Virus record (IMG/VR): IMGVR_UViG_3300022591_000002
DNA from: a virus
Taxonomy: Duplodnaviria; Caudoviricetes
Length of the DNA stretch: 64,000 nucleotides
Reading direction: 5' to 3' (one strand)
Of the stretch, positions 4,015 to 47,100 are shown in pieces; the first letter of the stretch is position 1; each line of letters opens with the position of its first letter. Position numbers and translations under genes: made by a program. The notes beneath the pieces are model-generated. The model was not told the origin of the DNA. It worked only from the letters and a program-made list of their open reading frames with translations, and searched no databases.

Positions 4015-6687
4015 ATGAGTTACGTAGATGCCATCTGGGATCGCGACAAAGACGTTGTACGTGTCGTTGAGCGAGATCCAAAAAAGGGCCGAATCTTTAT
4101 TGATTACCCAGCCCGATATCAATTTTACTATCCCGATCAAAAGGGCAAGTACACATCAATACATGGTGAGTCATTAAGCAAAGTCACAGCTAAGACTTTC
4201 AAAGACTTTATCAAAGAACAAAAAATTCACAGTACCCACAAGTTATACGAATCAGATATTAATGCTGTATTCCGTGTGCTTGAAGAAAAGTATCTAGGTA
4301 CTGAACCTCCCAAATTACACACAGCCTTTTGGGATATTGAGGTGGACTTTGATCCAGAACGCGGCTATGCATCTCCAGAAGATGCGTTCATGCCAATTAC
4401 TGCGATTGCTGTTCACCTACAATGGTTAGATACACTAATCTGTCTTGCAGTTCCTCCTAAGACACTTACAATGGAGCAGGCAAGAGAACAAGTTAAGGAA
4501 TTTCCTAATACACACTTGTTCGAAACAGAAGCAGAAATGCTTGACACTTTCTTACAGCTAATCGAAGATGCAGATATCTTAAGTGGTTGGAACAGTGAAG
4601 GCTTCGATATGCCGTATACTGTTAATCGTATTATTAAAGTTCTAAGCAAAGAAGATACACGCAGGCTGTGTTTATGGGATCATTTCCCAAAGAAGAGAGA
4701 ATATGAAAAATACGGAAAAACTGCGATCACTTATGATCTCGTGGGCCGAGTACACCTTGACTCATTGGAACTTTATAGAAAGTATACATATGAAGAACGC
4801 CACACCTACAGACTTGATGCTATTGGAGAAATGGAAGTCGGAGAGAGCAAAACAGTTTACGAAGGAACTCTCGATCAGTTATACAACAACGACTTCAGAA
4901 AGTTTATCGAATACAACAGACAAGACTGTGCGCTACTAGACAAATTAGATAAAAAACTAAAATTCTTAGATCTAGCCAACACACTGGCGCATGAAAATAC
5001 TGTATTGCTACAGACTACAATGGGTGCCGTTGCTGTTACAGAACAGGCTATTATTAATGAAGCACACCATAGAGGTATGATTGTTCCAAGTCGTCCTAAA
5101 CGTGATGACACAGAAAATAACCAAGCCGCAGGTGCTTATGTTGCTTATCCAAAGAAAGGTCTTCATGACTGGATTGGATCAATGGACATTAACTCACTGT
5201 ATCCATCTGTGATTCGTGCATTAAACATGGGCCCAGAAACTATTGTAGGACAACTGCGCCCTACAAAGACTGATGAATTCATTGAAGAACAAATGACCTT
5301 ACAGAAAAAGTCCTTTGCCGCGGCATGGGAAGATAAGTTTGGCACATTTGAATACGAAGCTGTTATGGATAAGGATCGAGCATTTGAAATTACTGTTGAC
5401 TGGGAAAACGGTGGCAGTGATGTAATGAGTGCCGCAGAAGTCTACAGATTGATCTTTGAAAGCAATCAACCGTGGATGCTAAGTGCTAACGGCACAATCT
5501 TTACACATGAGCAGGACGGTGTTATTCCAGGTTTGTTAAAACGCTGGTATGCTGAACGTAAAGATATGCAGAAAAAATTAAAGGAGGCAATCGATGCTGG
5601 TAACAAAATTGAGGAAGAGTATTGGGATAAGCGACAGCTTGTTAAGAAAATTAACCTTAACAGTCTATACGGTGCTATTCTTAATGCTGGTTGCAGGTTC
5701 TTTGATAAGCGTATTGGCCAATCCACAACTCTTACAGGAAGACAAATTGCTCGCCATATGGCCGCAAAAGTAAATGAAGTGATTACTGGAGAGTATGACT
5801 ATAAAGGCAAGAGCGTAATCTACGGTGACACAGACTCTGTGTACTTTAGTGCGTACTCTAGTCTTAAAAACGAAATTGCCAAAGGACAGATTCCTTGGGA
5901 TAGAGATACTGTTGTTCAACTGTATGATACTATTGCTACTAACGTGAATAGTACATTCCCAGAATTTATGCTGGAAGGGTTCCATTGTCCAAAGAGCCGC
6001 GGTGAGGTTATCAAGGCAGGACGTGAAATTGTTGCCGTCAAAGGCTTGTTCATTACTAAGAAACGTTATGCTGTACTGTATTACGATAAAGACGGCAAGA
6101 GACAAGACGTTGATGGTAAGCCAGGTAAGATCAAAGCTATGGGCTTGGACTTGAAGCGTTCAGATACTCCAGAATTTATGCAGAAGTTCCTAGAAGAAAT
6201 TTTAACTAACGTGCTTAATGGTGCTCAGGAAAAAGAAACTCTAGAACGCATTAGTGAATTCCGAACTGAGTTTAAGGCAAGACCTGGTTGGGAGAAAGGC
6301 AGTCCAAAACGTGCTAACAACATCACAGACTATCAAGAACGTGAAAAGAAAACTGGAAAGATTACTATTCCAGGCCATGTACGTGCTAGTATGAATTGGA
6401 ATACTCTAAAGACCATGCACGGTGACAAATACAGTCAACAGATTGTCGACGGCATGAAAGTAATTGTTTGTAAAATTAAAGACAATCCATTAGGATATAC
6501 TAGCGTTGCATATCCGGTTGATGAATTGCGTTTGCCAAAATGGTTCCAAGATTTACCATTTGACCACTCTGAGATGGAAACAACAATTATTAACAACAAG
6601 TTGGACAATCTTATTGGTGTTTTGGAATGGGATTTAGAATCAACAGTACAAAATAATACATTTGGCAAATTGTTCTCATTTGATTGA
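4015..6687 (+). CDS. Family B DNA polymerase (T4 gp43-like) with 3'-5' exonuclease
   Basis: ExoI FWDIEV, ExoII GWNSEGFDMPY, ExoIII YNRQD, motif A SMDINSLYPS, motif B KINLNSLYG, motif C YGDTDS, KKRY. Confidence 0.97.
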   Translation: MSYVDAIWDRDKDVVRVVERDPKKGRIFIDYPARYQFYYPDQKGKYTSIHGESLSKVTAKTFKDFIKEQKIHSTHKLYESDINAVFRVLEEKYLGTEPPKLHTAFWDIEVDFDPERGYASPEDAFMPITAIAVHLQWLDTLICLAVPPKTLTMEQAREQVKEFPNTHLFETEAEMLDTFLQLIEDADILSGWNSEGFDMPYTVNRIIKVLSKEDTRRLCLWDHFPKKREYEKYGKTAITYDLVGRVHLDSLELYRKYTYEERHTYRLDAIGEMEVGESKTVYEGTLDQLYNNDFRKFIEYNRQDCALLDKLDKKLKFLDLANTLAHENTVLLQTTMGAVAVTEQAIINEAHHRGMIVPSRPKRDDTENNQAAGAYVAYPKKGLHDWIGSMDINSLYPSVIRALNMGPETIVGQLRPTKTDEFIEEQMTLQKKSFAAAWEDKFGTFEYEAVMDKDRAFEITVDWENGGSDVMSAAEVYRLIFESNQPWMLSANGTIFTHEQDGVIPGLLKRWYAERKDMQKKLKEAIDAGNKIEEEYWDKRQLVKKINLNSLYGAILNAGCRFFDKRIGQSTTLTGRQIARHMAAKVNEVITGEYDYKGKSVIYGDTDSVYFSAYSSLKNEIAKGQIPWDRDTVVQLYDTIATNVNSTFPEFMLEGFHCPKSRGEVIKAGREIVAVKGLFITKKRYAVLYYDKDGKRQDVDGKPGKIKAMGLDLKRSDTPEFMQKFLEEILTNVLNGAQEKETLERISEFRTEFKARPGWEKGSPKRANNITDYQEREKKTGKITIPGHVRASMNWNTLKTMHGDKYSQQIVDGMKVIVCKIKDNPLGYTSVAYPVDELRLPKWFQDLPFDHSEMETTIINNKLDNLIGVLEWDLESTVQNNTFGKLFSFD

Positions 6688-6735: not shown

Positions 6736-7470
6736 ATGAAAGCAATATTACAAGACATCGTATCTCATACACACAATCTAGGTTTCCTAGAGATTGTTAA
6801 AGTTACTGGTGACGACAAAACAACTAAGATCGATTCCATGGCAGACGATCGTACAGTTATTATGACTGCAGAAACTGCAAATCCATACGCAGATATCCAA
6901 GGCGTATTTGGTATGCCACAACTTAACAAGTTGAAGATTCATTTAGACTGTCCGGAATATCGCGAAGATGCCAAGATTGATGTTGTTAAGGCACAGCGTA
7001 ACGGTGTTGACATTCCAGTAGGTTTACACTTTGAAAACAAAGCAGGCGACTTCCAGAATGATTATCGCTTTATGAACATGGAAGTTATTAACACAAAATT
7101 AAACGTGCCTAAGTTTAAAGGTGTTAACTGGAACGTAGATGTTGTTCCAACTGTTGCAGGTGTACAGCGTTTTAACTTTCAAGCTACTGCTAACAATGAA
7201 CACACAACATTCACTGTTAAAACAGATGGCAATAAATTAGTATTCTCATTTGGCGATGCATCAACACACGCAGGTGAGTTTGTGTTTGCCGAAGGCATTA
7301 CAGGTAAGCTGAAGAACCAAATGAGCTGGCCAGTTGCACAAGTACAAAGCATCTTGAAGATCGCCGATGTAAACAATACAACAATGAGCTTCAGTGATGA
7401 AGGTGCGTTACAAATTACTTTAGACAGCGGTTTGGCAACTTACAAATACATTTTACCAGCACAAGCATGA
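6736..7470 (+). CDS. Probable sliding clamp (gp45/PCNA-like)
   Basis: 244 aa with a two-domain beta/alpha pattern and C-terminal ..DEGALQITLDSGLATYKYILPA; directly downstream of the DNA polymerase. Confidence 0.6.
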   Translation: MKAILQDIVSHTHNLGFLEIVKVTGDDKTTKIDSMADDRTVIMTAETANPYADIQGVFGMPQLNKLKIHLDCPEYREDAKIDVVKAQRNGVDIPVGLHFENKAGDFQNDYRFMNMEVINTKLNVPKFKGVNWNVDVVPTVAGVQRFNFQATANNEHTTFTVKTDGNKLVFSFGDASTHAGEFVFAEGITGKLKNQMSWPVAQVQSILKIADVNNTTMSFSDEGALQITLDSGLATYKYILPAQA

Positions 7471-9396: not shown

Positions 9397-9924
9397 ATGA
9401 AACGTGAATATACTGACGGTATTTCAGAAGACGTCTTGTTCTTTATTGGAACAGAAATTGAACGCACACCTGCATTTAATATGAAAACATTATTTGTAGT
9501 TGGCGTCCAAAATGAGCAGACTATTGTTAACCTAGCCGCAGATAACGGATGCACACATATCTATTTTGGTGCCAATCAAAGTTTTCCAAAACTAGAAACT
9601 AATGATGCAAGCAACTGGCGTCTATGGGAAGATATGATTCAGTATTGCCTAGATGCAGGTTTTTGGTGTACACTAGACTTTGATGTTGCGCAAACTGAAG
9701 GTTTATTAGAAAGCGGTCTGGTTGAGTATAGAAAATTTATTCCGCAGATTTCGGTGAAATTGCCCTATTTACAACAGCTAGGATATAATGCTACAATTAA
9801 GATAGACGATATCGGCTTTGAAGCAACAAATCCAGGTGTCTGGTGTGTACCAATTGGCGCTGTTACACAACGTAAGTATTTTACCAATTGGGATGAATAC
9901 AGTAACGATGAGATTATTAAATGA
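9397..9924 (+). CDS. Hypothetical protein inside the deazaguanine operon
   Basis: 175-aa ORF between the TGT-like and T-fold genes, coupled to the latter by an ATGA overlap. Confidence 0.75.
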   Translation: MKREYTDGISEDVLFFIGTEIERTPAFNMKTLFVVGVQNEQTIVNLAADNGCTHIYFGANQSFPKLETNDASNWRLWEDMIQYCLDAGFWCTLDFDVAQTEGLLESGLVEYRKFIPQISVKLPYLQQLGYNATIKIDDIGFEATNPGVWCVPIGAVTQRKYFTNWDEYSNDEIIK

Positions 9925-10364
9925 GTATTGAAACTATTAAAGAAGCCGCACAACGGCAAATTTGGGTTACCTTTCAAAAGGAAGGCATTCACTGCTATCC
10001 TGCCGCGGCAACAGACCCAGCACTTGCTACAGGAGATGAATATGATGTATCGTTTTTGGGCACTCCTCATCGTCATATCTTTCACTTCCGGGTGTCAATC
10101 GATGTATTCCACAATGACAGGGACATCGAATTCATCCAATTCAAACGGTGGCTCGAGAGTCTCTATACCGGTAACAACACTAATAACGGTTCCGTTTTAG
10201 CACTTAACTACAAGTCTTGCGAAATGATTGCAGATGATTTGTACGACCAGATTGCGTCACGATACCCAAATCGTAACGTAGTAATTGATGTATCCGAGGA
10301 CGGCGAGAACGGATGCATCATTCATTATAACCTTACTCGCCCGTCACAATCCATTGTAATTTAA
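9921..10364 (+). CDS. dpdL: T-fold QueD-like protein with LxxxHRHxF motif (DpdL-like CDG decarboxylase candidate)
   Basis: EGIH, LGTPHRHIF, DIEF, SCEMIA and VSED align with QueD T-fold motifs, but HRH replaces HGH and there is no CxxxHGH. Confidence 0.6.
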   Translation: MSIETIKEAAQRQIWVTFQKEGIHCYPAAATDPALATGDEYDVSFLGTPHRHIFHFRVSIDVFHNDRDIEFIQFKRWLESLYTGNNTNNGSVLALNYKSCEMIADDLYDQIASRYPNRNVVIDVSEDGENGCIIHYNLTRPSQSIVI

Positions 10365-10376
10365 GGAACTTAAAAA

Positions 10377-10622
10377 ATGGCACAGCCAAAGTGGCTCGAC
10401 AAATATCTGACTATGAAGCCTGAAGTCAGCAAGATCTTTGATGATCTTGAGGCATGGCACGATCATTGCCGTTTTGAAATGATCAACTTCAACCCTGCAG
10501 ACTTATACAAGTCTAAGGCGTACCGCGACTGGCAGTACTACAAGTCGAAGGGCAAGCGTCCGTTTGTGCATCGCGATGACCGTGAGCGCAAGCCATATCA
10601 GGGTAAGAACCCTAGATACTAA
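10377..10622 (+). CDS. Hypothetical protein
   Basis: 81-aa ORF with an AAGGA RBS upstream. Confidence 0.7.
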   Translation: MAQPKWLDKYLTMKPEVSKIFDDLEAWHDHCRFEMINFNPADLYKSKAYRDWQYYKSKGKRPFVHRDDRERKPYQGKNPRY

Positions 10623-10623
10623 T

Positions 10624-11730
10624 ATGACAGTATTCCTAGTTGATCTAGAAGCTGTTGAGACAAGGTACACGGGTCAGTGGAAGACTCATGTACCTGCTCT
10701 CTTACGTAAAGAAGGACACAATGTTCAAGTTATATCCGGACCTACTGATATACCTAGTGCTACTACTCCTGGCGCTTTTCTTAACTTTGGCGGGACTAAC
10801 ATCTACAAAGCTAGTCAAGTGGAGCAGATGGGTCGCCTATTTTGCTCCGGAGCAGTACATCCTGGGGATCATTTTTTGTTTACTGATGCTTGGCATCCTG
10901 GTATCATAAACTTAAAGTACATGAGTGAGTTGTTAGATATTCCTGTAACAACACACGGCTTATGGCACGCTGGTAGTTATGATCCTCAAGATTTCCTAGG
11001 TCGACTAGTTGGCAATAAACCTTGGGTTCGTAGAGCAGAAGCAAGTTTTTATCACGCATTTGATCACAACTACTTTGCTACAGACTTTCATATTAAACTA
11101 TTCTTTGATGAATTGTTAATGGGTGGTTTGAAATCTGAGAATCCTTGGTATGATGACGATATTGCAGAAGTGCTAGGTGGATTAAATCCTAAGATTGTAC
11201 GCACTGGTTGGCCAATGGAGTATATGGATAATACTTTAACTACGTATAAGAACATGGACAAGCGTGATCTTATCTTGTTCCCACATCGTATTGCTCCAGA
11301 AAAACAAGTTGAAATTTTTCGCGATTTAAAAGAACACTTGCCACAATATGAATTTATTGTGTGTCAAGATCAACAGTTAACAAAGAATGAATATCATAAT
11401 TTGTTAGGCGAAGCAAAGTTAGTATTCAGTGCTAACTTACAAGAAACATTAGGCATTAGTTGTTACGAAGGTGCAGTAGTAGATGCAATACCTATGGTGC
11501 CAGATCGTTTAAGTTATACAGAAATGTATTTTGATACATTTAAGTATCCTAGTGAATGGACTGAAAGTTTTGCTTCTTATGAAGCTCATCGTCCAGAACT
11601 GTGTGGTAAGATTATTCAGTATATGAACAACTATACACATATGGTTCCGCAGATTCGTAAGCAAGCAGAATCATTGACAGAGAATTTTTTTAGTGCAACA
11701 GAGTTGTTAAAGAGGTTTAAAAATGAGTAA
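10624..11730 (+). CDS. GT-B fold glycosyltransferase (GT4-like; resembles GTDC1/QTMAN)
   Basis: ILFPHRIAPEK and QETLGISCYEG..DAIPMVPDRLSYTEM match the GT-B donor-binding region. Start moved to ATG 10624 to avoid overlapping the upstream gene. Confidence 0.8.
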   Translation: MTVFLVDLEAVETRYTGQWKTHVPALLRKEGHNVQVISGPTDIPSATTPGAFLNFGGTNIYKASQVEQMGRLFCSGAVHPGDHFLFTDAWHPGIINLKYMSELLDIPVTTHGLWHAGSYDPQDFLGRLVGNKPWVRRAEASFYHAFDHNYFATDFHIKLFFDELLMGGLKSENPWYDDDIAEVLGGLNPKIVRTGWPMEYMDNTLTTYKNMDKRDLILFPHRIAPEKQVEIFRDLKEHLPQYEFIVCQDQQLTKNEYHNLLGEAKLVFSANLQETLGISCYEGAVVDAIPMVPDRLSYTEMYFDTFKYPSEWTESFASYEAHRPELCGKIIQYMNNYTHMVPQIRKQAESLTENFFSATELLKRFKNE

Positions 11731-12520
11731 AGTAGGTATTATAGGTTTAGGATTTGTAGGTAACGCAATTAAGCAATCATTTTATGACGATACTAATCTA
11801 GTGCTAGTAGATAAAAATCCCGCACTCGGTCGCGATCCGTTTCAAGATTTAACAACCACTGATGGTGTGTTTATTTGTGTTCCAACTCCACAAGATGACG
11901 ATGGAACATGCCATACTGATATTTTAGAAGATATTCTTGCCAAGTTGAAATTAATCAACTACGAAGGAGTTATTATCAGTAAGTGTACTGCACCTCCCGA
12001 TACCTATACACGGCTTAATGAACAATTTCCAAACCTTGTACATGCTCCAGAATTTTTAACTGCGGCTAATGCTGTACGTGATTACACTAGTGGTAAGTTT
12101 GCTATTATCGGTGGTCGTGTTAAAGCCTATCGCGACTTAGCTGAAACAATTATTCGCAGATCACAATTAGATTTACAAGCAGTACACCATTGCACTATTG
12201 CAGAAGCAAGTTTAGCAAAATACGCTATCAATACCTTTATGGCAACCAAGGTTACATTTATGAATGAAATGTATGCTCTTGCCAAAGCTAGCAACTGTGA
12301 TTATAATAAGATTGCACATATGATTAAAAGTGATGTACGTATTGGAAATAGTCATTTACAAGTTCCTGGGCCAGATGGTGCATTTGGGTTCGGTGGAGCG
12401 TGTTTTCCAAAAGATACAAGCGCATTACTCAAATATGCAGAAAGCGTTGACGTACAAATGAATGTATTGGACGCCGCAGTTAAAAAGAATTTAGTACTAA
12501 GATTGACAGAACCTAAATAA
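11723..12520 (+). CDS. ugd: UDP-glucose/GDP-mannose dehydrogenase family protein (short form)
   Basis: Rossmann GIIGLGFVG, FICVPTP, APEFL, AKYAINTFMATKVTFMNE, catalytic GFGGACFPKD; 265 aa. Confidence 0.9.
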   Translation: MSKVGIIGLGFVGNAIKQSFYDDTNLVLVDKNPALGRDPFQDLTTTDGVFICVPTPQDDDGTCHTDILEDILAKLKLINYEGVIISKCTAPPDTYTRLNEQFPNLVHAPEFLTAANAVRDYTSGKFAIIGGRVKAYRDLAETIIRRSQLDLQAVHHCTIAEASLAKYAINTFMATKVTFMNEMYALAKASNCDYNKIAHMIKSDVRIGNSHLQVPGPDGAFGFGGACFPKDTSALLKYAESVDVQMNVLDAAVKKNLVLRLTEPK

Positions 12521-12571: not shown

Positions 12572-13342
12572 TTGACAACATTTACATCAGAAGATTTACG
12601 AAACGTACTAGCTGGCGCAGAACAGCAAGGCGATGACGATAAGAATTATAAAGAAGCATACTTAGGCGATCACCTTCGTTTTAAAATGAAACGTGAAGGC
12701 AAACGTTTTTGGGCAGGTGACAATATCAGCGAATATGTTACTGAAGAGTTTAAAGAAAAACTAATCGACGAAGCAACAGAAGCATTTGAAACAGTACTAG
12801 ATCGATTGCTTATTGATCGTGAAAACGATCCTAACAGCAAAGGCACAGCACGTCGGCTTGCCAAAATGTACTTTAACGAGATAATGGCAGGAAGATATGA
12901 ACCAGGACCAGATGCAACAGCATTTCCAAATGACTCGCAGGATCGTTACGAAGGTATGCTCGTTGTTCGTAGTGAGCTTCGCAGTATGTGTAGTCATCAT
13001 CACCAACCCGTATCTGGTGTTGCTTATATTGGCATTATTGCCGCTCAGAAACTTATCGGCTTATCAAAGTACACACGTATCGCACAATGGTGCGCCAGAC
13101 GTGGAACTCTCCAGGAGGAACTTTGTAATGACATTGCTAGGGAGATCTCAAAAGCAACTGACTCAGAAAACGTAGCAGTCTACGTTCAAGCAGTTCATGG
13201 ATGTTGCGAGAACCGCGGCATTATGGCACACTCTAGTCTAACTCAAACTACTGTATTAAAAGGTACATTTAAAGATGATCCTCATACAAAGAAAGAGTTC
13301 TTTGACAACATCAAACTACAACAAGAGTTTGCTCCAAGATGA
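12572..13342 (+). CDS. folE: GTP cyclohydrolase I
   Basis: TARRLAKMY, SMCSHHHQP, LIGLSK..RI, LQEE, HGCCENRG; TTG start after a GGAG RBS. Confidence 0.95.
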   Translation: MTTFTSEDLRNVLAGAEQQGDDDKNYKEAYLGDHLRFKMKREGKRFWAGDNISEYVTEEFKEKLIDEATEAFETVLDRLLIDRENDPNSKGTARRLAKMYFNEIMAGRYEPGPDATAFPNDSQDRYEGMLVVRSELRSMCSHHHQPVSGVAYIGIIAAQKLIGLSKYTRIAQWCARRGTLQEELCNDIAREISKATDSENVAVYVQAVHGCCENRGIMAHSSLTQTTVLKGTFKDDPHTKKEFFDNIKLQQEFAPR

Positions 13343-14975: not shown

Positions 14976-15438
14976 CTGGTTAGATCGACACGGCCGTAAA
15001 CGTGTCATTATGGATCGCGAATGTAACGAACCTTATTTGGAACGTTACTATGTCTTTTTGAAAGATCGTAAATGGTTTCCATTTAACGTATTCATTCATA
15101 AATTTTTAAAATCAGACCCAGATGAGGTACATGATCATCCATGGCCTTACGCTACCTTAATTCTTAAAGGTGGTTACTACGAATGGATTCCAATGTTTGC
15201 ACCAGATGGAATTAAAGTTGGCGAAACACGCTACTGGCGTGGTCCCGGACATTTCCGTATTTGTAGTCCTAAGAGTTTTCACCGTATTGAATTGCACCCA
15301 GAGGTAACTGCTTGGACTATGTTCATGCCAGGCCCACAAGTGCGTGAATGGGGATTCTTAGTAGGCAAATTTGAGAATCAAAAGTGGGTACACAACGAAC
15401 AATATTTGGAGGCAAGACGTGAACAAGCTGGTAATTGA
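14950..15438 (+). CDS. Cupin-fold protein
   Basis: VHDHPW...LILKGGYYE and FHRIEL give a His-rich cupin metal site; GGAG RBS before ATG 14950. Confidence 0.7.
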   Translation: MKLTERFLNWLDRHGRKRVIMDRECNEPYLERYYVFLKDRKWFPFNVFIHKFLKSDPDEVHDHPWPYATLILKGGYYEWIPMFAPDGIKVGETRYWRGPGHFRICSPKSFHRIELHPEVTAWTMFMPGPQVREWGFLVGKFENQKWVHNEQYLEARREQAGN

Positions 15439-15955
15439 TGATGCAAAATTTAAAGGCCTAGTTGCCAAAATCTGTAGAGATATTTTACTCAGCGATTGGC
15501 GTCCTGATTATATTGTAGGTATTACTAGAGGCGGACTATTGCCAGCTGTAATGATTAGCCAATACTTAGATATACCTATGCATACACTCAACGTAAGCCT
15601 GCGTGATAATCAAACAGATTTAGGTCCGGAGAGTAATTTATGGATGGCTGAAGATGCCTACGGATATAATGCAGAAAACGTAGGCGAGGCGTTGTGCAAA
15701 AACATTTTAGTAGTTGATGACATCAACGATCAAGGCTCAACTATAAACTGGATCATGGAAGATTGGCGTAGTGGTTGCTTACCTAATGATGCACGTTGGG
15801 AACAAGTATGGAATTACAATGTTCGATTTGCAGTAATTATAGATAATTTATCTAGCAAGTGCAATGTAAAAATGGACTACGTTGGTATGGAAGTTAACAA
15901 AGCTGAAAAAGACGTATGGATCGAATTTCCTTATGAGGAATGGTGGGCTAAATGA
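15419..15955 (+). CDS. Type I phosphoribosyltransferase (xanthine/guanine PRT-like)
   Basis: IVGITRGGLLPA and PRPP loop ILVVDDINDQGST; GTG start 15419 after GGAGG. Confidence 0.85.
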   Translation: MNKLVIDDAKFKGLVAKICRDILLSDWRPDYIVGITRGGLLPAVMISQYLDIPMHTLNVSLRDNQTDLGPESNLWMAEDAYGYNAENVGEALCKNILVVDDINDQGSTINWIMEDWRSGCLPNDARWEQVWNYNVRFAVIIDNLSSKCNVKMDYVGMEVNKAEKDVWIEFPYEEWWAK

Positions 15956-16236
15956 ATTCGCAAGAAAAAGAAGTAATGGATATTCTGCAAGAAGAATGTG
16001 CAGAAGTTATTCAAGCAGTTAGTAAAATTAGTCGCTTTGGTTTAGACAATTACAAACCAGGCAAACCTAAAACTAACCGCGAACATCTAGAAGAAGAACT
16101 AGGTGATATGTTGGCTATGATTGATATTTTGCAAAGTATGGATATTGTTAGCTATGCTAATATCGAACGTGCCCAAGAAGCAAAAATTGAAAAACTTAAG
16201 AAATGGTCTAACATTTATGAAAACAATATTACCTAA
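15952..16236 (+). CDS. MazG-like NTP pyrophosphohydrolase
   Basis: EECAEVIQAVSK and EEELGDMLAMI all-alpha NTP-PPase motifs. Confidence 0.85.
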   Translation: MNSQEKEVMDILQEECAEVIQAVSKISRFGLDNYKPGKPKTNREHLEEELGDMLAMIDILQSMDIVSYANIERAQEAKIEKLKKWSNIYENNIT

Positions 16237-16402
16237 AGAAGGCAGTAGATGGTCCGGCACTGAGAGGGAAGTTTTTATTGTCCTGCATACCGTTGAAGTA
16301 GACGGTCACACTTGGGTCCATTACAGAAAAAATTCTACTGATACAGAATATAGCTGTTACGTGGAAAGTTTTTTACAAAGATTTAATCCTATATTAGAAT
16401 GA
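16217..16402 (+). CDS. Small hypothetical protein
   Basis: 61-aa frame (MKTILPKEGSRW..) filling the gap between the MazG-like and cupin genes. Confidence 0.55.
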   Translation: MKTILPKEGSRWSGTEREVFIVLHTVEVDGHTWVHYRKNSTDTEYSCYVESFLQRFNPILE

Positions 16403-16758
16403 CACAATTAAAAGGCTTAGTTCCAAAAGGCTGGGGTTCAGAATTTATCTGGGCCACTAATGACAAGTACTGCGGCAAGTTTATGAACTTCAACGCAGGT
16501 GCAAAATTTAGTATGCACTTCCATAAAGATAAAGAAGAAACTTGGTATATACAATCAGGTAAATTTATTATCCGCTGGATTGATACTAACAACGCAGAGG
16601 TTTACGAGAAAGAAGTTAGTGATGGTACCGTATGGCATAACCCCCCGTGCATGCCACATCAAATCGAATGTATCGAAGCAGGTACTGTTATTGAAGTTTC
16701 TACTCCAGATTCAGTAGAAGACAATTATCGTGTAGGCAAGGGCGATAGTCAAAAATGA
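16399..16758 (+). CDS. Cupin, sugar isomerase/epimerase-like
   Basis: KGWGSEFIW, SMHFHKDKEETWY, PHQI, IEVST; adjacent to the RfaE-like genes. Confidence 0.75.
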   Translation: MTQLKGLVPKGWGSEFIWATNDKYCGKFMNFNAGAKFSMHFHKDKEETWYIQSGKFIIRWIDTNNAEVYEKEVSDGTVWHNPPCMPHQIECIEAGTVIEVSTPDSVEDNYRVGKGDSQK

Positions 16759-17156
16759 CAAAGGTAATTGTTAATGGAACTTTTGATATACTACATCGCG
16801 GCCATTTGGAACTACTTGACTACGCTAAAAGTTGTGGCGGGTATTTGCTTGTGGCTATTGACACAGATCGCCGTGTAAAAGAATTAAAAGGCGACAGTCG
16901 TCCTATTATTAGTCAGTATGATCGTAAGTATCATTTAGAAATGCTTAAACCAGTCGATGAAGTTAGACTGTTTGATAGCAAAGAAGAACTTGTAGAAATT
17001 ATTAAGAATTATAATCCAGACATTATGGTCAAGGGCAGTGATTACAAAGGCCGTAGTGTAGTTGGAGCAACATACGTACCAGAGGTAATTTATTTTGAAC
17101 GACTCGGCGAATACTCAACAACCAAAACAATTGAACATATTACTGCTAGGGGATGA
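16755..17156 (+). CDS. Cytidylyltransferase-family nucleotidyltransferase (RfaE/HldE domain II-like)
   Basis: NGTFDILHRGH (HxGH), DRRVKELKGDSRP, KGSDY, YSTT. Confidence 0.9.
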   Translation: MTKVIVNGTFDILHRGHLELLDYAKSCGGYLLVAIDTDRRVKELKGDSRPIISQYDRKYHLEMLKPVDEVRLFDSKEELVEIIKNYNPDIMVKGSDYKGRSVVGATYVPEVIYFERLGEYSTTKTIEHITARG

Positions 17157-17859
17157 CGGTTTAGACGTCTATCAGTTTGGTAGCGTAGATCGTATTAGCC
17201 CAGAAGCACCTGTTCCCGTCTTTAAACATTCTTATGATATTCATCGGGCTGGCATGGCTCGTAACGTTTGCGAAAACTTAGAAGCATTGGGTTGTAAAGT
17301 AAGTTTCCTACGAGGCCAAACTAGCATCAAGACTAGACTAATTGATATTCGCAGTAAGCAACAAATTGTTAGGATTGACAACGATGTTGAATCAGATCCT
17401 ATTGTGTTTGAAACTAATATTCCCCCAGTGTATGATGCCATTGTTATTAGCGATTATAACAAAGGCACAATTACTTACGAACTAATTGAAGATCTAGTAA
17501 AAACTGTTAAATGCCCTATCTTTGTTGATACAAAGAAAACTGACCTAGCACGATTGGAAGGCTGTATTATTAAAATTAATAAACACGAATACAGTTTGTT
17601 AACTAGCAAGCCAAAAACAGGATTAGTTATTACACAGGGAGAAAATGGTGTTGTATGGGACGGTTGGGCATTTGGCGCAAAGACTGTAGAAGTAGCCGAT
17701 GTGTGTGGAGCAGGGGATACGTTTCTATCTGCACTTACATACCAATACCTAAATACAAACGACATGCACATGGCAATTAACTTTGCAATAGATGCAAGTG
17801 CAGTTACAGTACAACATTTAGGTTGTTACGCACCCAAACTGGAAGAGATAAATGGATAA
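17131..17859 (+). CDS. PfkB-family sugar kinase (RfaE/HldE domain I-like)
   Basis: RISPEAPVPV, GMARNV..NL.ALG, ISDYNKG, DVCGAGDTF; probable TTG start at 17131. Confidence 0.9.
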   Translation: MNILLLGDDGLDVYQFGSVDRISPEAPVPVFKHSYDIHRAGMARNVCENLEALGCKVSFLRGQTSIKTRLIDIRSKQQIVRIDNDVESDPIVFETNIPPVYDAIVISDYNKGTITYELIEDLVKTVKCPIFVDTKKTDLARLEGCIIKINKHEYSLLTSKPKTGLVITQGENGVVWDGWAFGAKTVEVADVCGAGDTFLSALTYQYLNTNDMHMAINFAIDASAVTVQHLGCYAPKLEEING

Positions 17860-38190: not shown

Positions 38191-41100
38191 TTAATCACCT
38201 TCAATTGGGTTTCCGTTCTCATCTTGTAATACAGCTTCTGTTTCTAGGATAATTACCGCATCACCGCCGAAGTAGTTGTCATCTGGCAACTGAGCAGTAT
38301 CTTGCGATAGGAATCCTCGTACAGATTCTGTAAATTCTTGTCCTGGTCTTAATACTATTTGGCTTGCATGTGCAGGGTCTGCAAATTCTGATAGCTTGAA
38401 CATACTCTGACCAACTCGTTGTCTTACGACTAATTCTAATCCTGGCTGAACATCAATATTTAACTGTACTGTAGGAGTTGTTAAACTATTTGTTATCGTA
38501 AACTCTGGCATAATTACCACACTACTCAAGTTGCCGCTACTGTCTTGTTGATTAGAATCGTATGCTACTGGATTGAATACTACTACTGTATTTGTAGTAG
38601 GTTTCAGCAGTCTGCGTCCGCCGTAGAACACATCAACTTGATCCCAAGGGTTAGCAAGAGAGTTAAAGTTAATCATCTTGTCAGCACTTGTATCCGATGG
38701 ATTTAATACAAACGTAGTGTTTGTATTTGTTGACATAAACGTCTGAGTGATTGTTCTTTCTGCAACAGGAACATTTACGCCCGGGCCTTGGTCAATTACT
38801 TTTGTGCCAGATGGATATCCAGATCTTGCACCTGTTCCCATAGTACCACGAGTAAGTTGTCCTAACACATTGCCAAACTTAGTAAAGTATTCAATACGCT
38901 CACCGGCAACATAAATGATACCAGGTAAGTTCTTAGCTGGGTTAGGATCACTTAATACTGAACCATTTTCAACTAGTATAGTGCTATCAGTAATTAACAA
39001 CGGATTAGCTAGAGCTGTTGTTGCTTTATCACCAATGCGCTTGATACTTGTGCGACCTAAAATGTCTGTAAACATTCTATAGGTCATGCTACCAATAAAG
39101 GCATTTTGACTCATACTTGTAATAACAACTGTGTCATTTGTGCCGGTATAGAAACTTGGTCTGATAGTAATTGTTACACCGTCGCTAGCAACTGTGTAAT
39201 CAATATCTGCAATTAGACTCTTTTGATTGTACTCAACCCAGATGTAAGCGGTATCAAACACAGGTCTTTGAATCTGATATGTGTTTTGTACATTACCTTT
39301 GAATTTTTCTTTTCTAATAAAATCACCATCGTGATTGGTAAACGATGTAATTCTAATATTATCGTTAGGAGTTCTAGTTAGATTTTGCAATAATAATTTG
39401 TTATTGCTAATTTGATATTCGTAGTTGTCAAAGATTACAAAAGCAAGTGCATCTCCTTTCTGTAAACGACCTTCTGGGAATTCAACAATACCTTGTGCAG
39501 AATTCAAGAAATAGTTTAGAGGAGTTTGTTCTAATTTTTCACCGTTTAACCAAACTTCAAATATTGAATTATCAATTTGACCCTTAGTATAGTTAATGTC
39601 TTGATTTAAACTATAACCCTGTGCATCAATAATAGTCCACTCAATTGTTGATCCTGGAGGATAAGCATTTGTATTTCCTGGAGGATAAGCAATTATTGTA
39701 CCTGTAGATGTAGCGGTTGTAAACTGTGCAATAGTTCCTGTGCCTTTTAATTGGAAGGCTTTTAAGTTGTCTCCAACAATATAGTAAATTGTTGAAGGAG
39801 GAATTAATCTACGGCCATTAAGTTCAACAATCACCTGACTGCTGTAAGGACCTGCAACGCCTGGCGGTTGTTCTAAGTTGAACTGAATGCCCTGCGCTCT
39901 TGGAATTACTTGTGTATATACTTCGCCGCTGGCTTTGAATGGAGCATCAAAATACCAAACTTGTGTCTTATTCAACGCGGCATTGTTAATACCTTCAATA
40001 ACACCTGGTTTAATAATATTTAGATATCCACGAGGATTTTCTTCGTTCTCTCTGCCAACGGCCTTAGATAAGGTATAACCGTAAGTTTGATTTCCTGCAC
40101 CTGTAAACTTAGGAACTGGAATACCGTTTACTGTTACGTATACGCTACCAATGTCTTTGTAAGCTACTGGAGACAATACGTTGATAGTACGGGCCGCACT
40201 AAACACAACCTGTTTGTCCAACACGTTAACCCCGCCAACATCAAACGAACTAATGCTTAAGAAATCAGGACCAGGTAATGGAGCCAACAATCCCAAGTTA
40301 TTATTTGTAATATCTAACACATAGTCGACACCAAAGTGCAATGGCTTATTGCCAGCTACCACAATTAAAGAACTTGTGTTAGCAATGTTGCCCATGTTAA
40401 ATGACTGTGTCTGTCCATCTAACTGATACTTGTAGTTTTTAATAACAGGAGCACTTAAGAATTGTGTGTTGTTTGTTGTTGTGTTAACGCTAAACACGCT
40501 GATAGCAACAGACTCTTGAATTTCTCCAGGAATCATTTCTTCTGGCGCATGGCTAGCGTTAGCTGATAAGAATGAATCACCGTCAATAACAATTTCAGAT
40601 GCGCCAATACCTAAAATAACTCCTTGATCAAAGTTACCGCCACTCATTAGGGTATCTAGACTTTCTTCGTCAGTTGGAACTAATGTGCCGTCATCTGTAG
40701 AACTTCTAAACACTACAATATTGTTAGATGTAGAAATGGTTGTAATTCCAATACCAAAGTTACCTGGATCGGATGTATAAGATAATGTAACAGTGGTAGT
40801 TGATGCAGTTGTAGCAACGTAAGTACCATTGTATAGATCGTTACTGTTACCTGCAACAATCCAGTTACCTAAAACAGGCGCACTGGTTTGTGTAAAGATT
40901 CCTAAGGTAACTGCAAAAGGTCCTGTTCCTGTTTTACTTACAAAGTTAGTAACAGTTGTAGTTGGTAGGAATAAATTGTGTGGAATATAAACTGTACCAT
41001 ATGTACCTGTACCGTGTAATGGTAGTGTCACCGCTCCGGTTGCTGTATTATCAATACGGATTCCGTTTAGATAGGTATTAATAGTTGTACCTGTACTAAT

Positions 41101-44100
41101 CTTGAACGGTGTTATTACTGCTACATTGCCATTTGTTAAGTAATTTATTTGAGATGTTAAACTAGCAATTTCACCGTTAACAAATGATAACTGAGTTTCT
41201 ACGTCACCCAATTGTGAAATTAAAGTGGAGTAGTAGGGATTTGGAACCTGTTGAACTCCAAGACCTGTTGAAACAGTAATAAACTCTGGAACACTACCCA
41301 GTGTGTTGGTAATATAAGCAATTTGACTTGTTAAACTGTCTCGCTGTGATTGTGCCGCACTACGCTCAGTTAATAACAAACTTGCATCATTATTTGTAGT
41401 ATTCTGAGGATTTAGCACAACTGCATAGTTTTCACTAGGAGCATAGTTATCCCAAGATGTAGTCCAGTACGGCAACACTCCAAAGCCACCGGAGAAGCTG
41501 TATGGCAATGTATCTACTTTAACTGCCGGATAGTCAAATCCTACCATTAACTGACCAAGTTGGTTAGCACCAGGCATACCCGACATTGGAGCATAGTAAT
41601 CTTGTATTCTATCAACGGCTGTAAACAAACTAACGTCTTTTGGATATGTTATTTCAATCTTAGTTTGTATTGTAGGAACTGCATTCAACTGTAGAATTGC
41701 AAATTTCTTGTTGTACGAAGTATCTGCTTGCTCGTATGTAGTTGTACGGCCTGTTGGACTGTACATAACATATGATGAACCTGTGTTTGTTACAAAAGGT
41801 TTTTCAGAAGTTATAATAGAGAACGAATCTGCTAACTGTAAAACTCCGTTTATAGTTAATGTAATAAGTCCTTTGTCATGTGATGGTACCCATGTTAGTG
41901 GGAAACGATATGCACTACCGTCGGCTGTAAACTTATCAGTAAAGTATTTGCTACCAATTTCTCTTCCAAAACCCACACGGTCAAACTTTAATGTTACTGC
42001 TGTAGAGCGAACTTTATTATTTGCTAACTGTGCATAGGCTGTTGCTGTTACTACTTTTGGACCTCCTCCGCCTGTAATTACAACAGTTGGAGTTGATGCG
42101 TAGCCTGATCCAGGGTTGGTTACAATAATCTTGTAGACTGCACCGTTAGAAATATAAGCATCAGCAGTTGCGCCAGAGCCTAAGTCGCCAGGTGCTGGAA
42201 TGATTTGAACCGCTGGAGCAAACTGATATCCAGAGCCGCCGTTGGTTACTAATATTTCTCCAACGTGGTAAGCATAGTTTTTAAACCAGTTATTCCATGG
42301 AGCAACTAAAAGTTCACCGTTACCAAAGCCTACTGTACGGAAACGTTTCTGATTCTGATCCCAATAGCTAGGTAAGTCAAAGTCTGTAACTAGTGTACTG
42401 CTGTATTCAGTTGCTGTATAGTTTACAGTAAAGTTACGAATCTTAGTATGGTAAGGTTTAACTTCGTTAATGTAAGATTCATAGTAACTACTGTCTTGTA
42501 GTTTATATGTTGGACGTTGATCTAATTGACCAGCATGATTAGTTACGCTAATAAACGTAGTCTTAAATGCCCAGTCTAGATTCTTCTGTTCGCTAAACGC
42601 ATACTTAACTGCCTTAAAGAATAATGTATTCCAATTTACTTTTAGATCAGATATGAATAGATCTTTTCTTAACGCTTCTAAGATATAGAATAGTTCTGCG
42701 TCTGGGGTTTGGTCAAATTCAGTTTGGTCAAATGATGAAATTTCGTCAAACGCATATACAGAATTAACAGTATTCCATAGGTTGCTGGTAATTTGAATAG
42801 TACCGTTTTCGCTCACCATTAGATCCCAGTTAGCATCAAATGTACCTACAAGGTTACCTGGAGCAGTTCTTCTTAGGATTAGGTATCGGCCATCGCCGCC
42901 GTTTCTAACTTTTACATAGTTACCGGCTGGTAGATCTTGTACAATATCTAATTCGTATGTGCTATCAACTGTAGTGATAGGAGGCTGTAATGCATTGTAT
43001 GATGGATCGTACCAGTTTACATAATTCCAATAGTATGTTGTATTGAACGTTTGTGTCTTAGTCTTACTCCATTCCTGACGTCTAGCATTCCATTGATAGA
43101 TTGACCAACGGCCATTACTATTACTATCAGTTTGAACTGCTATAGTGTATGGACGAATGTTTGCGGTCGCCGTTGTGTAACCTGAACCAGGATTGATAAT
43201 GTCAAAGTTAAAAATTCTGCCTTGACTGTCTATCATAGTTCTTATAACTGCGCCTGTACCGTCACCTGTAATTTCAATATACGGTGCATTGTTTGGATTG
43301 TATCCGTAACCTGCATTTAAAATATTAACAGTATCAATACCACCGTTAGTGTTAGGAACAACTTCAACTACTGCCTGCACAAAGAATTTAGTGATTGTAA
43401 AATTCAATGTAGCAATGTCAGGAACTGTTGTATCGTAAAGTCCTAAATTTGTTGCTGGAATTTCTTCCATAGCATTTAAATTATCAAATTTACGAACTCC
43501 GTTGATTAGAGTTTTTGCTAATACGGTGTTTGCATATTCAAAGATATTTCGCATAGCTTCAAATCTGTCAACAAACATACTTTGGCGCGGACGGATTCCA
43601 ATGCCGTACTGCAAACGTTTTGGTAATGATGGATCAGGAACTGCGTTACCTAAAGTGTCATGACCTAAAATACTGTCAATCATCTTTTGCTCTAGCATAC
43701 TGTTAGGCATGCTTTCTGGATTGCCTTCCTCGACTAATAACCATTCTGTATGAATAGCAGTAGGATTGCTTATAGAATCCATTTCAATAGCAAGATGAAT
43801 ATTTTCAGATACTAATGAATTCTTATAGTTGACTAATGCTATTGCACTAGGGCCAACTATTGTTGCATAACGTAATCCCTGTGCTTGCGGATTACTAATA
43901 ATACTAGCAACTTCGTAAGCACTAATTCTTCTGTTAGTTGATGCAGGAATAACTGTTTTGTTCTTGACCCAGAAATAGTAAATGTTTGTAAATGAACTTG
44001 AAACAGAATTATAAACTTGTTTTACACTCATTACCGAGTTGTCACCAAATTTTGGTTGTCCGCTTACGCCTAACGCAAGGCCTTCTGGAGTATCTGCTAA

Positions 44101-47100
44101 CGCACTCCACTGGCTTGGTAAGTACTCACTGGCTACCCATTCGTAAACATCAAAAGTACTACCTGGGAATACTCCTCCCCAGTTGTTTCTTCTGTATTCG
44201 TAATCCCCTTGCTCATACCACATGTATTTTACTGAGCTTAGATCCCACCATAGTTCACCTACGTGTTCATCAATCCAGTTAGTGTTTGTGTCAACAACAA
44301 CACCTGTTACACCAATGCTGTAAACAGCAGGATCAAATAGAGATTTGAATCTTAACTCTTGATCTGCTTGCCCTGGAATATTGCCCTTAATTGGATCAAT
44401 GAATTCTAGGTAATCAACAATTTCTTCATTAAAATCGTCGATGGTGATTACACGGTTAACTTTATTAAGGTCAACTAGATCATTCTCAGTACGAGATAAT
44501 TTCCATGTTTCTGTTGTGCCATCTTTACCTGTGAATACTACAAGTTGTCCTGTACCAACTCCGTTGATCTTACTTGTTGGGGCGCCAACAAGTACTTTAT
44601 CTTTTGTAATAGTTGCATTATTACCAAAACTACTGCTACTAGCTACTTGGGCAGATTCAATTTGCTGACCGTAAGCAAAGTAGTTGTTGTACTGATTATA
44701 GACGTATGCAGATCCAGAATTTGTTATACCGGATACAAAGGTTGTTGCTCCGGAGTCCCAAGATGGAATATTAGTTCTCATGCCACTTGCAGGATCCAAT
44801 GTGTAAGGAGTAGCCGAAGTAGAGTTTATTCTTGCTGAATACTTGTCAAAAGTTGTAGTTCTTGTATAGGCATTTCCAAACGCTGTAATTACAAGTGTAT
44901 TATTATTTGTAGGGCTTACTGCAAAATCGTAGCCAAATGTTAGTCCGCTAATTTGATTTGGAGACTGGATAACTTGGTTAACTACATATCCTGCGCTAGT
45001 TAATGTTGAAACAACAACTGCACCTTTTGTAATTCCTTCTTGATAAGAAGGTAATGATGTAAACAAGAATTTTGCATCGTTAGACATAACAACTTTTACA
45101 CCAAGACCATATGATTGATCTAGTCCTAAAGATGCATAGGTAATTACCTGCGTTAGATGTAATGTTGTATTAGTTAAAGTATAGATTATAATTTCGCCGG
45201 CGCCCGGAGCACCAACAGCAACATATGACACACTAGAAGTACCGGTTGTTGTACCAAAGTCACTAATTGAATAACCAAATTGTGCATTTGATGTAGATGT
45301 TGTAATGTACAATGCCGATACGTTTGTTGCTGTAATGTTTACGTTTGTTGCAGTAACATCAGACAATGTATATTGATATACACGACCATTAGCTTCGCCA
45401 GGAGCACCAATTAACAAGAACTTACTGCCTGCCTGTTGTTGTATTGCCATATCTTGGCCAAACAAACTTCCAGCTTGTGCATCAGGACTACCAATAACGT
45501 GCAATGTGTTTTGGAAAGTTGTTAATGTATTGATGTTTGAAATTTTAACTAGGCCGCAATTATCTAATCGGTTGCCTGTTACATTATTAACACCGTATGC
45601 GACATGCTGTGTAGAACTTGTAGAAAGTTTTAAATTACTTGCATTTGGCGCACTAACAATAAACAATCCATCATCAGGTTGATGAAGAACTTTTGCACCA
45701 AAGTTTCCGCAAATTGCAGAGTCAGAATAGATAACTGAGGAATCGTTTAGTTCCCAGCTTGTAATAGAAGACAATGCTGTAACAATTTCATTGTCTACAT
45801 TTCTCACTAGTTCTTGAGTATAATAGTAAACGCGGCCGCCGCCTGTGTTGGCTCCTTGACCTAATGTAGAATTTACATATCCTGGTGCAGAAACAAGTAA
45901 TGTATTATTATCTGAGGACGCATAGATTGTTGATCCGTATCTTGCACCTTCGCTAGAAATACCACTAGTTAACGCATTGCTTGTAAAGTTATCAACTTTT
46001 TCAAACACGGCCCATTTGCCATATTGATCATTGACCCATACTTTATTACCTGCTGAAGATTTTTCTAGAACAGGATTGTATCGAATATCATCAAACTTGT
46101 CTAATCTTGCTGATGTAAATTGGAACAATAATCCAACCATTGTTTCTGAACTTGCTGGAATGTTTGTCAGTGTAGTGTTTACTAAGAATGTAAACGGACT
46201 AGGAACTCCAACTACGATGTAAATGGCATCTAAGCCTGTGCTAAAACGAGTCACACTAACAATGTCACCGACTTTTAAACCGTGTTGCATGTCAGTTGTG
46301 AATGAGAACTGATTTGGAGCACCTGTTAATAATTCAGCTGATACTGCTTTTGCATCAATCTGAGTATAACGCAATACATCCCAATCGCCGTCTTCTTTAA
46401 AGCCTAACCATAATACATCACCTTCAGAAAGTTGTGCAGGATTAGCAATATCTAAAATACTGTTTTTGTTATAAACTGTTGCCTTAACGTCGTCGTAATG
46501 TACAAATCCAGCTGTTGGCATTTTTATACTGTTACTGTTATAGGTAGCAGTAGTAGTTGCAAACACAGAATCTGAAGTATAATCATCAGGTTTTACTAAT
46601 AGATCGTAAGGTGTTTTGTAGTAAATTAAATCATTAGCTACTGTAGGTACTTGATCAATAAATTCAATCAGTTGAGGATTTTCAAAGAATTTAGAATCAC
46701 TCAATGACACTTCAAGTTCACGTTTTGTGTTAAGGCCGCCGTATGTACCAACACGCAATGCCCAAGTTTCATTATAGGTAACTTGTCCTTTTAGATTATG
46801 AATACTTGCTTTTGCTAGTTTGTCAATAGCATTCTTTGTACCTTTTTCTTTGATGTATCCTTGATAAAATTTGTACTGTGCAATAGGATCATTAAAGATA
46901 TTGTCTAGATAAATTCTAGGAGTATAGCCTGTTAGGTGCTGTGCCATCTTTTCTTGGCCAGCATCAAAGTTATCAATATCTAAACTATAGAAATCTTCAA
47001 ATTGATTAATCTTATAATCAAAGTTTGGATATAATTTAGGTACAGGTTTACCTGGTAACAAACTCCAAGATGCAAAATTAAAACTTGCTGTTCCTGGAAT

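Follow-up and report, generated by a model that had tools for sequence, protein, structure and literature searches.

A glycosyltransferase gene of an uncultured jumbo phage (Duplodnaviria; Caudoviricetes) was analyzed in a stretch of 64,000 nucleotides, hereafter called the window, from IMG/VR record IMGVR_UViG_3300022591_000002. The gene occupies 10624..11730 on the plus strand, and its product of 368 amino acids (P0001) is hereafter called the transferase. In phages and in bacterial chromosomes, it is linked to a gene for a DpdA-family guanine transglycosylase. From this linkage, which is strong but not a demonstration, we infer that the transferase glycosylates a deazaguanine base after DpdA has inserted that base into DNA. 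We assign this reading a probability of about 0.5.

Linkage of the Transferase and DpdA Genes

A DpdA-like gene was located within 3.8 kb of the transferase gene in 106 of 128 loci, and on the same strand in 104. These 128 loci include many close kin and represent roughly ten independent lineages; the remaining loci were mostly contigs cut short or cases in which DpdA was too divergent for the profile. Bacterial islands contained the pairing, as did no fewer than six phage lineages, cultured or uncultured, among them PA5oct, ACP17, and BUDD.

The transferase was detected in 22 GenBank phage records, with a full-length match in 17 (Phosso, eleven PA5oct-like records, two of ACP17, BUDD, X1, and BCSR5). 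All 17 also encoded DpdL, a T-fold protein described below, and twelve further DpdL phage records, including the phiST group, were without the transferase. The earlier note on this DNA had placed the gene next to a tRNA-guanine transglycosylase (TGT). In the window, a gene with the TGT fold does lie on the same strand, but it is not adjoining: three small genes lie in the 1.2 kb between its end and the transferase gene downstream. The adjacency is literal in PA5oct, ACP17, BUDD, and BCSR5, where the transferase gene abuts or overlaps the DpdA gene; the PA5oct transferase gene is EST35_0317.

The transferase-DpdA pair was also found in about 30 Alphaproteobacterial and other genomes, including those of Pelagibacterium, Devosia, Ochrobactrum, Azospirillum, Methylobacterium, Magnetospirillum, Sulfitobacter, and Shimia. 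These islands displayed two architectures (L111 6324-12053; L110 5629-12306; L097 6089-9035). The gene order in Magnetospirillum was CoiA-nuclease-like, transferase, DpdL, DpdA-like, and QueD, and a HEPN protein was encoded close by. Directly upstream of the transferase gene, 16 loci had a Vut_1/YhhQ-type gene of the queuosine-precursor transporter family, and islands of this transporter type often carried a MASE1 histidine kinase, a LuxR regulator, and a 585-amino-acid protein. The base source thus varied between DpdL with QueD and the Vut_1/YhhQ-type gene, and the transferase-DpdA pair was constant. This constancy despite a changing base source counts in favor of a deazaguanine acceptor.

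The bacterial islands may be a new deazaguanine-based DNA-marking or defense system. As in the known bacterial Dpd system (DpdA, DpdB, and DpdC with restriction genes), a DpdA-like gene is accompanied by nuclease-like (CoiA_nuc) or HEPN genes and by a base supply. Unlike the Dpd system, these islands contain the glycosyltransferase, a Vut_1-type transporter or DpdL, and the MASE1 kinase with its LuxR regulator. No DpdB- or DpdC-type family match was obtained among the open reading frames (ORFs) annotated in two islands.

Four contigs labeled as metagenome-assembled genomes of Neomarinimicrobiota, Methanobacteriota, Legionellales, and Pacearchaeota (L092, of 335 kb, L093, L094, and L095) contained the same phage block, consisting of clamp, DpdA-like, DpdL, transferase, FolE, QueE, and flap endonuclease genes. 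They are most likely jumbo-phage contigs that were binned into cellular genomes. In Xanthomonas phage BUDD, a PAPS-reductase-family (PP-loop) gene (L155 7374-7868) was observed between the FolE and transferase genes, which hints that some transferase clusters may amidate or otherwise alter the 7-carboxyl group.

Fold and Conserved Residues of the Transferase

The ORF of the transferase runs from an ATG at 10624 to a stop codon whose last nucleotide is 11730. This start codon is considered correct because relatives align from residue 1-3. Both motif strings that the earlier note had read from the gene, ILFPHRIAPEKQVEIF and LTKNEYHNLLGEAKLVFSANLQETLGISCYEGAVVDAIPMVPDRLSYTEM, are present in the translation. 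P0001 by itself gave no useful match in Pfam (E ≤ 0.1), PHROGs, NCBIfam, or a single-sequence PDB search. A first search returned at least 8,000 candidate relatives, all at E ≤ 0.001, and in an exhaustive search at E ≤ 0.001 the family comprised 1,089 clusters at 50% identity. Close relatives (78-87% identity) were plentiful in IMG/VR and in collections of metagenomes, where the contigs that carry them reach 353 kb.

An alignment of 54 diverse full-length relatives (A1), which are 28-52% identical to the query except for four close ones, was used for an AlphaFold2 model of the transferase. The model displayed two Rossmann-like domains with a cleft between them, with a predicted local distance difference test score (pLDDT) of 95 and a predicted template modeling score of 0.92. 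Foldseek searches of PDB and Swiss-Prot matched this model over residues 1-367 to enzymes of glycosyltransferase families 4 and 5 (GT4/GT5) at E values of 1e-8 to 1e-11, including glycogen synthase, BshA, MshA, PimB, and PglA. Residues R222, K227, E274, and E282, which correspond to the phosphate-binding Arg/Lys and the E-x7-E of GT4 enzymes, were invariant or at least 90% conserved in A1. PF00534 was matched by 39 of the 54 relatives at E ≤ 1, a weak signal with a best value of 3e-8, and P0001 itself had no such match at E ≤ 0.1. The confident GT-B/GT4 fold and the intact donor-site residues bear out the call of a glycosyltransferase, and by its model the protein is predicted to be a soluble, retaining-type GT4 enzyme of the GT-B fold.

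The invariant residues of the N-terminal domain are all located in the loops that come after its beta strands; in GT-B enzymes, these loops face the cleft and usually form the acceptor site. In the model, this placement points to one acceptor that would be conserved across the phage and bacterial members of the family. The conserved loops contain many aromatic and acidic residues and few basic ones.

The DpdA-Family Neighbor and the Base-Synthesis Genes

The neighbor with the TGT fold, P0122 (7874..9394, plus strand, 506 amino acids), gave no direct family match by itself, and its assignment draws on motifs and fold. Among 32 relatives with 22-87% identity, D104-S-G-G-x-Q109, D149, Q197, and D285 were invariant. 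Of 42 weak profile matches in PDB, 40 were transglycosylases, with E values of 0.06-1 for TGTs. The AlphaFold2 model of P0122 had a pLDDT of 85, and its best 50 PDB fold matches were all bacterial TGTs (E about 1e-8). Furthermore, hhalign related P0122 at 95% to the ACP17 dpdA product, the protein that Cui et al. took to be the DpdA of that phage (PMC10516641), and P0122 is 43% identical to gp0316 of PA5oct. By sequence and model, P0122 is thus assigned as a DpdA-family (DpdA3-like) guanine transglycosylase.

Three small genes on the plus strand separate P0122 from the transferase. The first (9397..9924) encodes a conserved 175-amino-acid protein between dpdA and dpdL, with homologues at the same place in ACP17 and five related contigs (L088, L089, L092, L093, and L095); it had no match in Pfam, PHROGs, or NCBIfam. 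The second (9921..10364) encodes a DpdL-type T-fold protein of 147 amino acids, a QueD paralogue, whose LGTPHRHIF motif fits the DpdL signature LxxxHRHxF as defined previously (PMC10516641). In a tblastn search, it matched phiST DpdL (33%, E 3e-8) and homologues in ACP17, PA5oct, and Phosso, and it is proposed to be a 7-carboxy-7-deazaguanine decarboxylase. The third (10377..10622) is a small basic ORF of 81 amino acids with BLAST matches at the same position in L088, L089, L091, and L092. It is conserved in the clade of the window and in its marine sister clade and gave no family match in Pfam or PHROGs.

Genes for base synthesis are located downstream on the same strand. GTP cyclohydrolase I (FolE, 12572..13342; PF01227, E 2e-39) catalyzes the first step of the deazaguanine pathway. 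A QueE-like radical SAM enzyme, a putative 7-carboxy-7-deazaguanine synthase (18954..19811), matched five NCBIfam QueE models at E values of 1e-10 to 1e-14, below their curated cut-offs, matched Pfam Radical_SAM weakly, and is homologous to the annotated QueE of PA5oct, ACP17, and Phosso. QueD was not found within the window; it was present in three related records, one of which is a 98%-complete 353-kb IMG/VR relative. A candidate QueC in this 353-kb relative, a partial PP-loop match of 26 bits over profile positions 4-68 of 210, was too weak to be accepted.

Taken together, the TGT evidence for P0122, the DpdL-type protein, and the base-synthesis genes identify, at the level of sequence, a module of the phiST type (FolE, QueD, QueE, DpdL, and DpdA3), which makes 2'-deoxy-7-deazaguanosine (dDG), with the transferase added. 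A predicted complex of the DpdA-like protein and the transferase scored 0.00 in a run without controls, which weighs neither for nor against binding.

Relationship to the Queuosine Mannosyltransferase QTMAN

The earlier note had likened the transferase to QTMAN/GTDC1. QTMAN transfers mannose from GDP-mannose to queuosine-34 of tRNA-Asp (PMC11755703), and we found no other glycosyltransferase for which activity on a 7-deazaguanine nucleoside is described. It consists of PF12038 (QTMAN_N), which is the defining acceptor domain, and PF00534. Like the phage transferase, QTMAN is a two-domain GT-B/GT4 enzyme of about 360-390 amino acids. Both carry H-R-x-x-x-[ED]-K, [HQ]-E-x-x-G-x-x-x-x-E, and P-x-R-L-[SA]-Y-x-E, and each is associated with an enzyme of the TGT family by which a 7-deazaguanine is installed. 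This partner is a tRNA TGT in the case of QTMAN and the DpdA-type enzyme of a DNA-modification module in the case of the phage transferase.

Prokaryote genomes totaling 596 Gb were scanned with degenerate patterns of two conserved peptides of the transferase family. The scan returned relatives of the phage enzyme and about 25 bacterial proteins that matched over residues 230-310 only. All eight of the bacterial proteins that were scanned consisted of PF12038 (159-197 bits) and PF00534. Confirmed full-length matches in the 596 Gb came only from the phage transferase family and the QTMAN family, which share the motif P-[DN]-R-L-[SA]-Y-x-E. A profile built from eight bacterial QTMAN proteins recovered 24-25 such loci overall, and the true bacterial members scored 149-209 bits for PF12038. 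These bacterial proteins carry LVWNHRWEYDK, STA.HEF.G..V.EA, and P.RL[AS]Y.E, the same motifs as the phage transferase.

Profile scores were compared in both directions, with PDB-wide hidden Markov model (HMM) scores as the control for QTMAN specificity. The A1 HMM scored 57-87 bits on the motif-selected QTMAN proteins; among 177,635 distinct PDB sequences, its best score was 25 bits (8xsg), and other solved GT4 enzymes reached at most 15 bits. In the reverse search, a QTMAN-like profile (A3) displayed a median of 55 and a maximum of 78 bits on the phage family, and its best PDB match was 31 bits. The alignments of the two families were related by hhalign with 99.7% probability (E 1.6e-26).

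To avoid the selection bias of shared motifs, a control sample was picked by the N-terminal domain, and PF12038 was sought in 401 Pseudomonadota genomes. It was present in 29 (L157-L185; about 7%), always as a single copy. The phage HMM scored 42-78 bits (median 58) on the 29 full ORFs. The strict motif occurred in one of these proteins, and most others had P-[DN]-R-L-A-Y-x-E. Hence, on the question of whether ordinary GT4 enzymes might lie closer, the profiles favor QTMAN, at 42-87 bits versus 25-31 bits for the best solved GT4 enzymes. By sequence, QTMAN-family proteins are therefore the nearest named family in both directions.

This likeness, real and well beyond what chance would give, holds for only one of the two domains. 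When the domains were compared separately by hhalign, the C-terminal nucleotide-sugar domain accounted for all of the QTMAN signal (99.8%, E 1.5e-28). The N-terminal acceptor domain had no detectable relation to QTMAN_N (2.3% over 35 columns), and PF12038 was absent among the 25 families listed for the 54 relatives at E ≤ 1. In the fold comparison, QTMAN was no closer than generic GT4 enzymes: template modeling scores in the ESM Atlas were 0.73-0.74 for QTMAN_N clusters, 0.73-0.79 for generic GT4, and 0.87-0.96 for the transferase's own family. GTDC1 was not among the best 30 Swiss-Prot fold matches.

The acceptor of GT-B enzymes is held by the N-terminal domain. Since this domain of the transferase has no detectable relation to QTMAN_N, homology supports a shared ancestry of the donor domain with QTMAN and does not support a shared, queuosine-like acceptor. 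The transferase was accordingly rejected as a member of the QTMAN family, as its N-terminal domain, which is particular to this phage and bacterial family, is without QTMAN_N. We know of no reported function for the bacterial QTMAN_N proteins. Through this kinship of the donor domains, the deazaguanine pathways of RNA and DNA are concretely linked in evolution.

Proposed Function and Alternative Explanations

In the proposed pathway, FolE, QueD (encoded outside the window), and QueE would produce 7-carboxy-7-deazaguanine (CDG), and the DpdL-type protein would decarboxylate it to 7-deazaguanine (DG). The DpdA-family transglycosylase would then exchange guanine in DNA for the deazapurine, and the transferase would transfer a sugar from a nucleotide sugar onto the inserted base, or onto a base derived from it. 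The product would be a bulkier glycosylated purine that may protect the DNA from nucleases. GDP-mannose is suggested as the donor by analogy with QTMAN; the sugar-nucleotide genes of the window are not conserved in other lineages. The earlier suggestion of a nucleic-acid deazaguanine as the acceptor of the enzyme thus draws its support from the DpdA linkage, and homology does not carry it as far as the acceptor. The QTMAN-like donor domain also counts in its favor, because QTMAN acts on a 7-deazaguanine nucleoside.

Several observations weigh against glycosylation of the inserted base. The likely phage base, DG or CDG, is without the cyclopentenediol that QTMAN mannosylates, and it therefore presents no alcohol as a chemically obvious acceptor atom. 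The sugar would then have to be linked to a ring or exocyclic nitrogen, O6, the carboxylate, C7, or a further-modified side chain. The transferase is acidic (isoelectric point 5.5), as is the DpdA-like protein, and no DNA-binding feature of the transferase was shown. Phages of the phiST type make plain dDG with DpdA3 and DpdL, so the transferase is not needed for insertion. In the literature searched, no mass-spectrometric evidence of a glycosylated purine was found. The lack of relation to QTMAN_N, given above, belongs with these points.

An unlikely alternative is that the transferase acts before insertion on a free deazapurine base, a pterin, or a nucleotide intermediate. DpdA would then take the glycosylated product as its true substrate, or the product would be a form for storage or export. 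The acidity of the protein and its acceptor loops, rich in aromatic and acidic residues and poor in basic ones, would suit a small heterocycle. The fold matches include GT4 enzymes with small-molecule acceptors (BshA, MshA, and the tetrahydrobiopterin glucosyltransferase 5zer/9v0l), the transferase gene directly adjoins the gene of the T-fold protein DpdL in Phosso, PA5oct, and ACP17, and in bacteria it follows the base transporter gene. However, TGT-family enzymes require a free N9 and a base that fits their pocket, and the nearest family, QTMAN, acts on the base once it is in the polymer. Furthermore, the DpdA linkage holds where DpdL and pterin-pathway genes are absent from the examined flanks.

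It is improbable that the transferase is an ordinary GT4 enzyme that is merely located in an early-gene region and has a target outside nucleic acids, such as the host envelope, the capsule, or a phage protein. The PF00534 matches of 39 of the 54 relatives and the best fold matches, which are ordinary GT4 enzymes, agree with this idea. Nevertheless, adjacency to a DpdA-like gene persists across phage lineages at 23-48% identity, and also in Alphaproteobacterial chromosomes whose flanks are otherwise unrelated. In addition, neither a membrane segment nor neighbors of the polysaccharide-cluster kind were observed.

Least probable is that the TGT-fold protein and the transferase act on tRNA as a functional analogue of TGT plus QTMAN: the C-terminal domain is kin to QTMAN and the fold of the neighbor matches tRNA-guanine transglycosylases, but the genes on either side of the module encode a DNA polymerase, a clamp, and a flap endonuclease, guanine is modified in the DNA of related phages (PA5oct, and phiST, in which dG is fully replaced), the neighbor is homologous to the ACP17 dpdA product, PF12038 as the tRNA-side domain of QTMAN is missing, and a DpdA-like neighbor was found in none of the 25 bacterial QTMAN_N loci checked (L129-L153).

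Glycosylation of the deazaguanine in DNA would, in its broadest form, be a DNA counterpart of the tRNA pathway from TGT to QTMAN. DpdA would install 7-deazaguanine, and the transferase, with a donor domain shared with QTMAN and a new acceptor domain, would glycosylate it, giving the first glycosylated purine known in any DNA. The island pair, accompanied by a deazapurine transporter or a nuclease, might perhaps serve as a new self/non-self marking. We offer this wider proposal tentatively, at somewhat less than even odds.

Comparison with Known Systems

The DpdA3/DpdL system was defined by Cui, Hutinet et al. in 2023, who reported dDG in Cellulophaga phage phiST (PMC10516641). The phiST system and the module of the window share FolE, QueD, and QueE, with no clear QueC, a DpdL that bears LxxxHRHxF, and a divergent DpdA beside replication genes. 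They differ in that phiST and its kin are without the transferase, and the clade of the window, PA5oct, ACP17, Phosso, BUDD/X1, and BCSR5 add it. Therefore, the end product of these phages may differ from plain dDG. The ACP17 genes dpdA plus dpdL gave no product in E. coli (Cui et al., PMC10516641), and a transferase step might explain this failure. The DNA of PA5oct, whose deazaguanine system was listed by Iyer et al. (PMC7824862), resists enzymes with G in their sites, and the modification was not chemically identified (PMC12191111). No paper was found on a glycosyltransferase in deazaguanine clusters or on glycosylated deazaguanine in DNA.

The T4 alpha- and beta-glucosyltransferases are phage GT-B enzymes that act on a modified base already in DNA with a nucleotide-sugar donor, as is proposed here. 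Their acceptor is a pyrimidine hydroxymethyl group (5-hydroxymethylcytosine), whereas no thymidylate-synthase-family gene, the type of hydroxymethylase concerned, was found in the 98%-complete 353-kb relative. A hydroxymethyl-pyrimidine target was rejected as unlikely on this ground. The T4 enzymes (GT63/GT72) were not among the best 50 PDB fold matches or the PDB profile matches of the transferase. To our knowledge, all sugar modifications of DNA are on pyrimidines, namely glucosyl- or arabinosyl-hydroxymethylcytosine and base J on hydroxymethyluracil. If true, a glycosylated 7-deazapurine would add a new class to the known DNA bases.

Besides widespread jumbo phages of fresh and marine waters, the pair is carried by PA5oct, a candidate phage for therapy, and by Alphaproteobacterial islands. 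Since the transferase family is abundant, the modification, if real, would be a common one in lake and ocean waters, with consequences for sequencing, restriction, and the biology of defense systems. The prediction can be tested in the cultured phages PA5oct, ACP17, Phosso, and BUDD.

Accessory and Other Genes of the Window

The block from 4 kb to 22 kb on the plus strand contains the replication and modification genes of the phage, including a family-B DNA polymerase (4015-6687), a clamp-like protein (6736-7470), and a flap endonuclease. Megablast of the region against GenBank phages gave no match.

The gene downstream of the transferase (11723..12520) encodes a truncated UDP-glucose dehydrogenase-like protein of 265 amino acids (PF00984, 1e-23; PF03721, 3e-12). 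It keeps the Rossmann motif and the catalytic GGACFPKD, and its C-terminal UDP-binding domain is missing; TIGR03026 matched over positions 73-293 of 413. The protein might oxidize a sugar that is not UDP-bound. The start of this gene overlaps the transferase stop by 8 nt, and it was found elsewhere only in L091 and L094; it is an accessory gene outside the conserved core.

A type I phosphoribosyltransferase (15371..15955; PF00156, 1e-12) adjoins MazG (both within 15371-16236). Homologues were found in L002, L088, L089, L092, and L093, and the gene is conserved in PA5oct and the marine sister clade. Its product may convert the free deazapurine base into a nucleotide, which, if true, bears on whether the replacement of G is wholly post-replicative.

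A run of four genes (16399-18253) on the plus strand encodes a cupin, a cytidylyltransferase-like protein of 133 amino acids, a PfkB kinase, and a HIT protein. It resembles a split RfaE-type set of sugar-1-phosphate kinase and nucleotidyltransferase, and it may be a phage-made supply of sugar nucleotide. From this run, only the HIT gene recurs in the sister clades. A 2-oxoglutarate-Fe(II) oxygenase (20088-20699), the UDP-glucose dehydrogenase-like protein, and the RfaE-like kinase and nucleotidyltransferase were rejected as core parts of the module because they are missing in most other lineages.

On the minus strand, a single ORF of 4,719 amino acids (38191-52350) lies among large ORFs of 600-1,300 amino acids, which presumably all encode virion or injected proteins of the jumbo phage.

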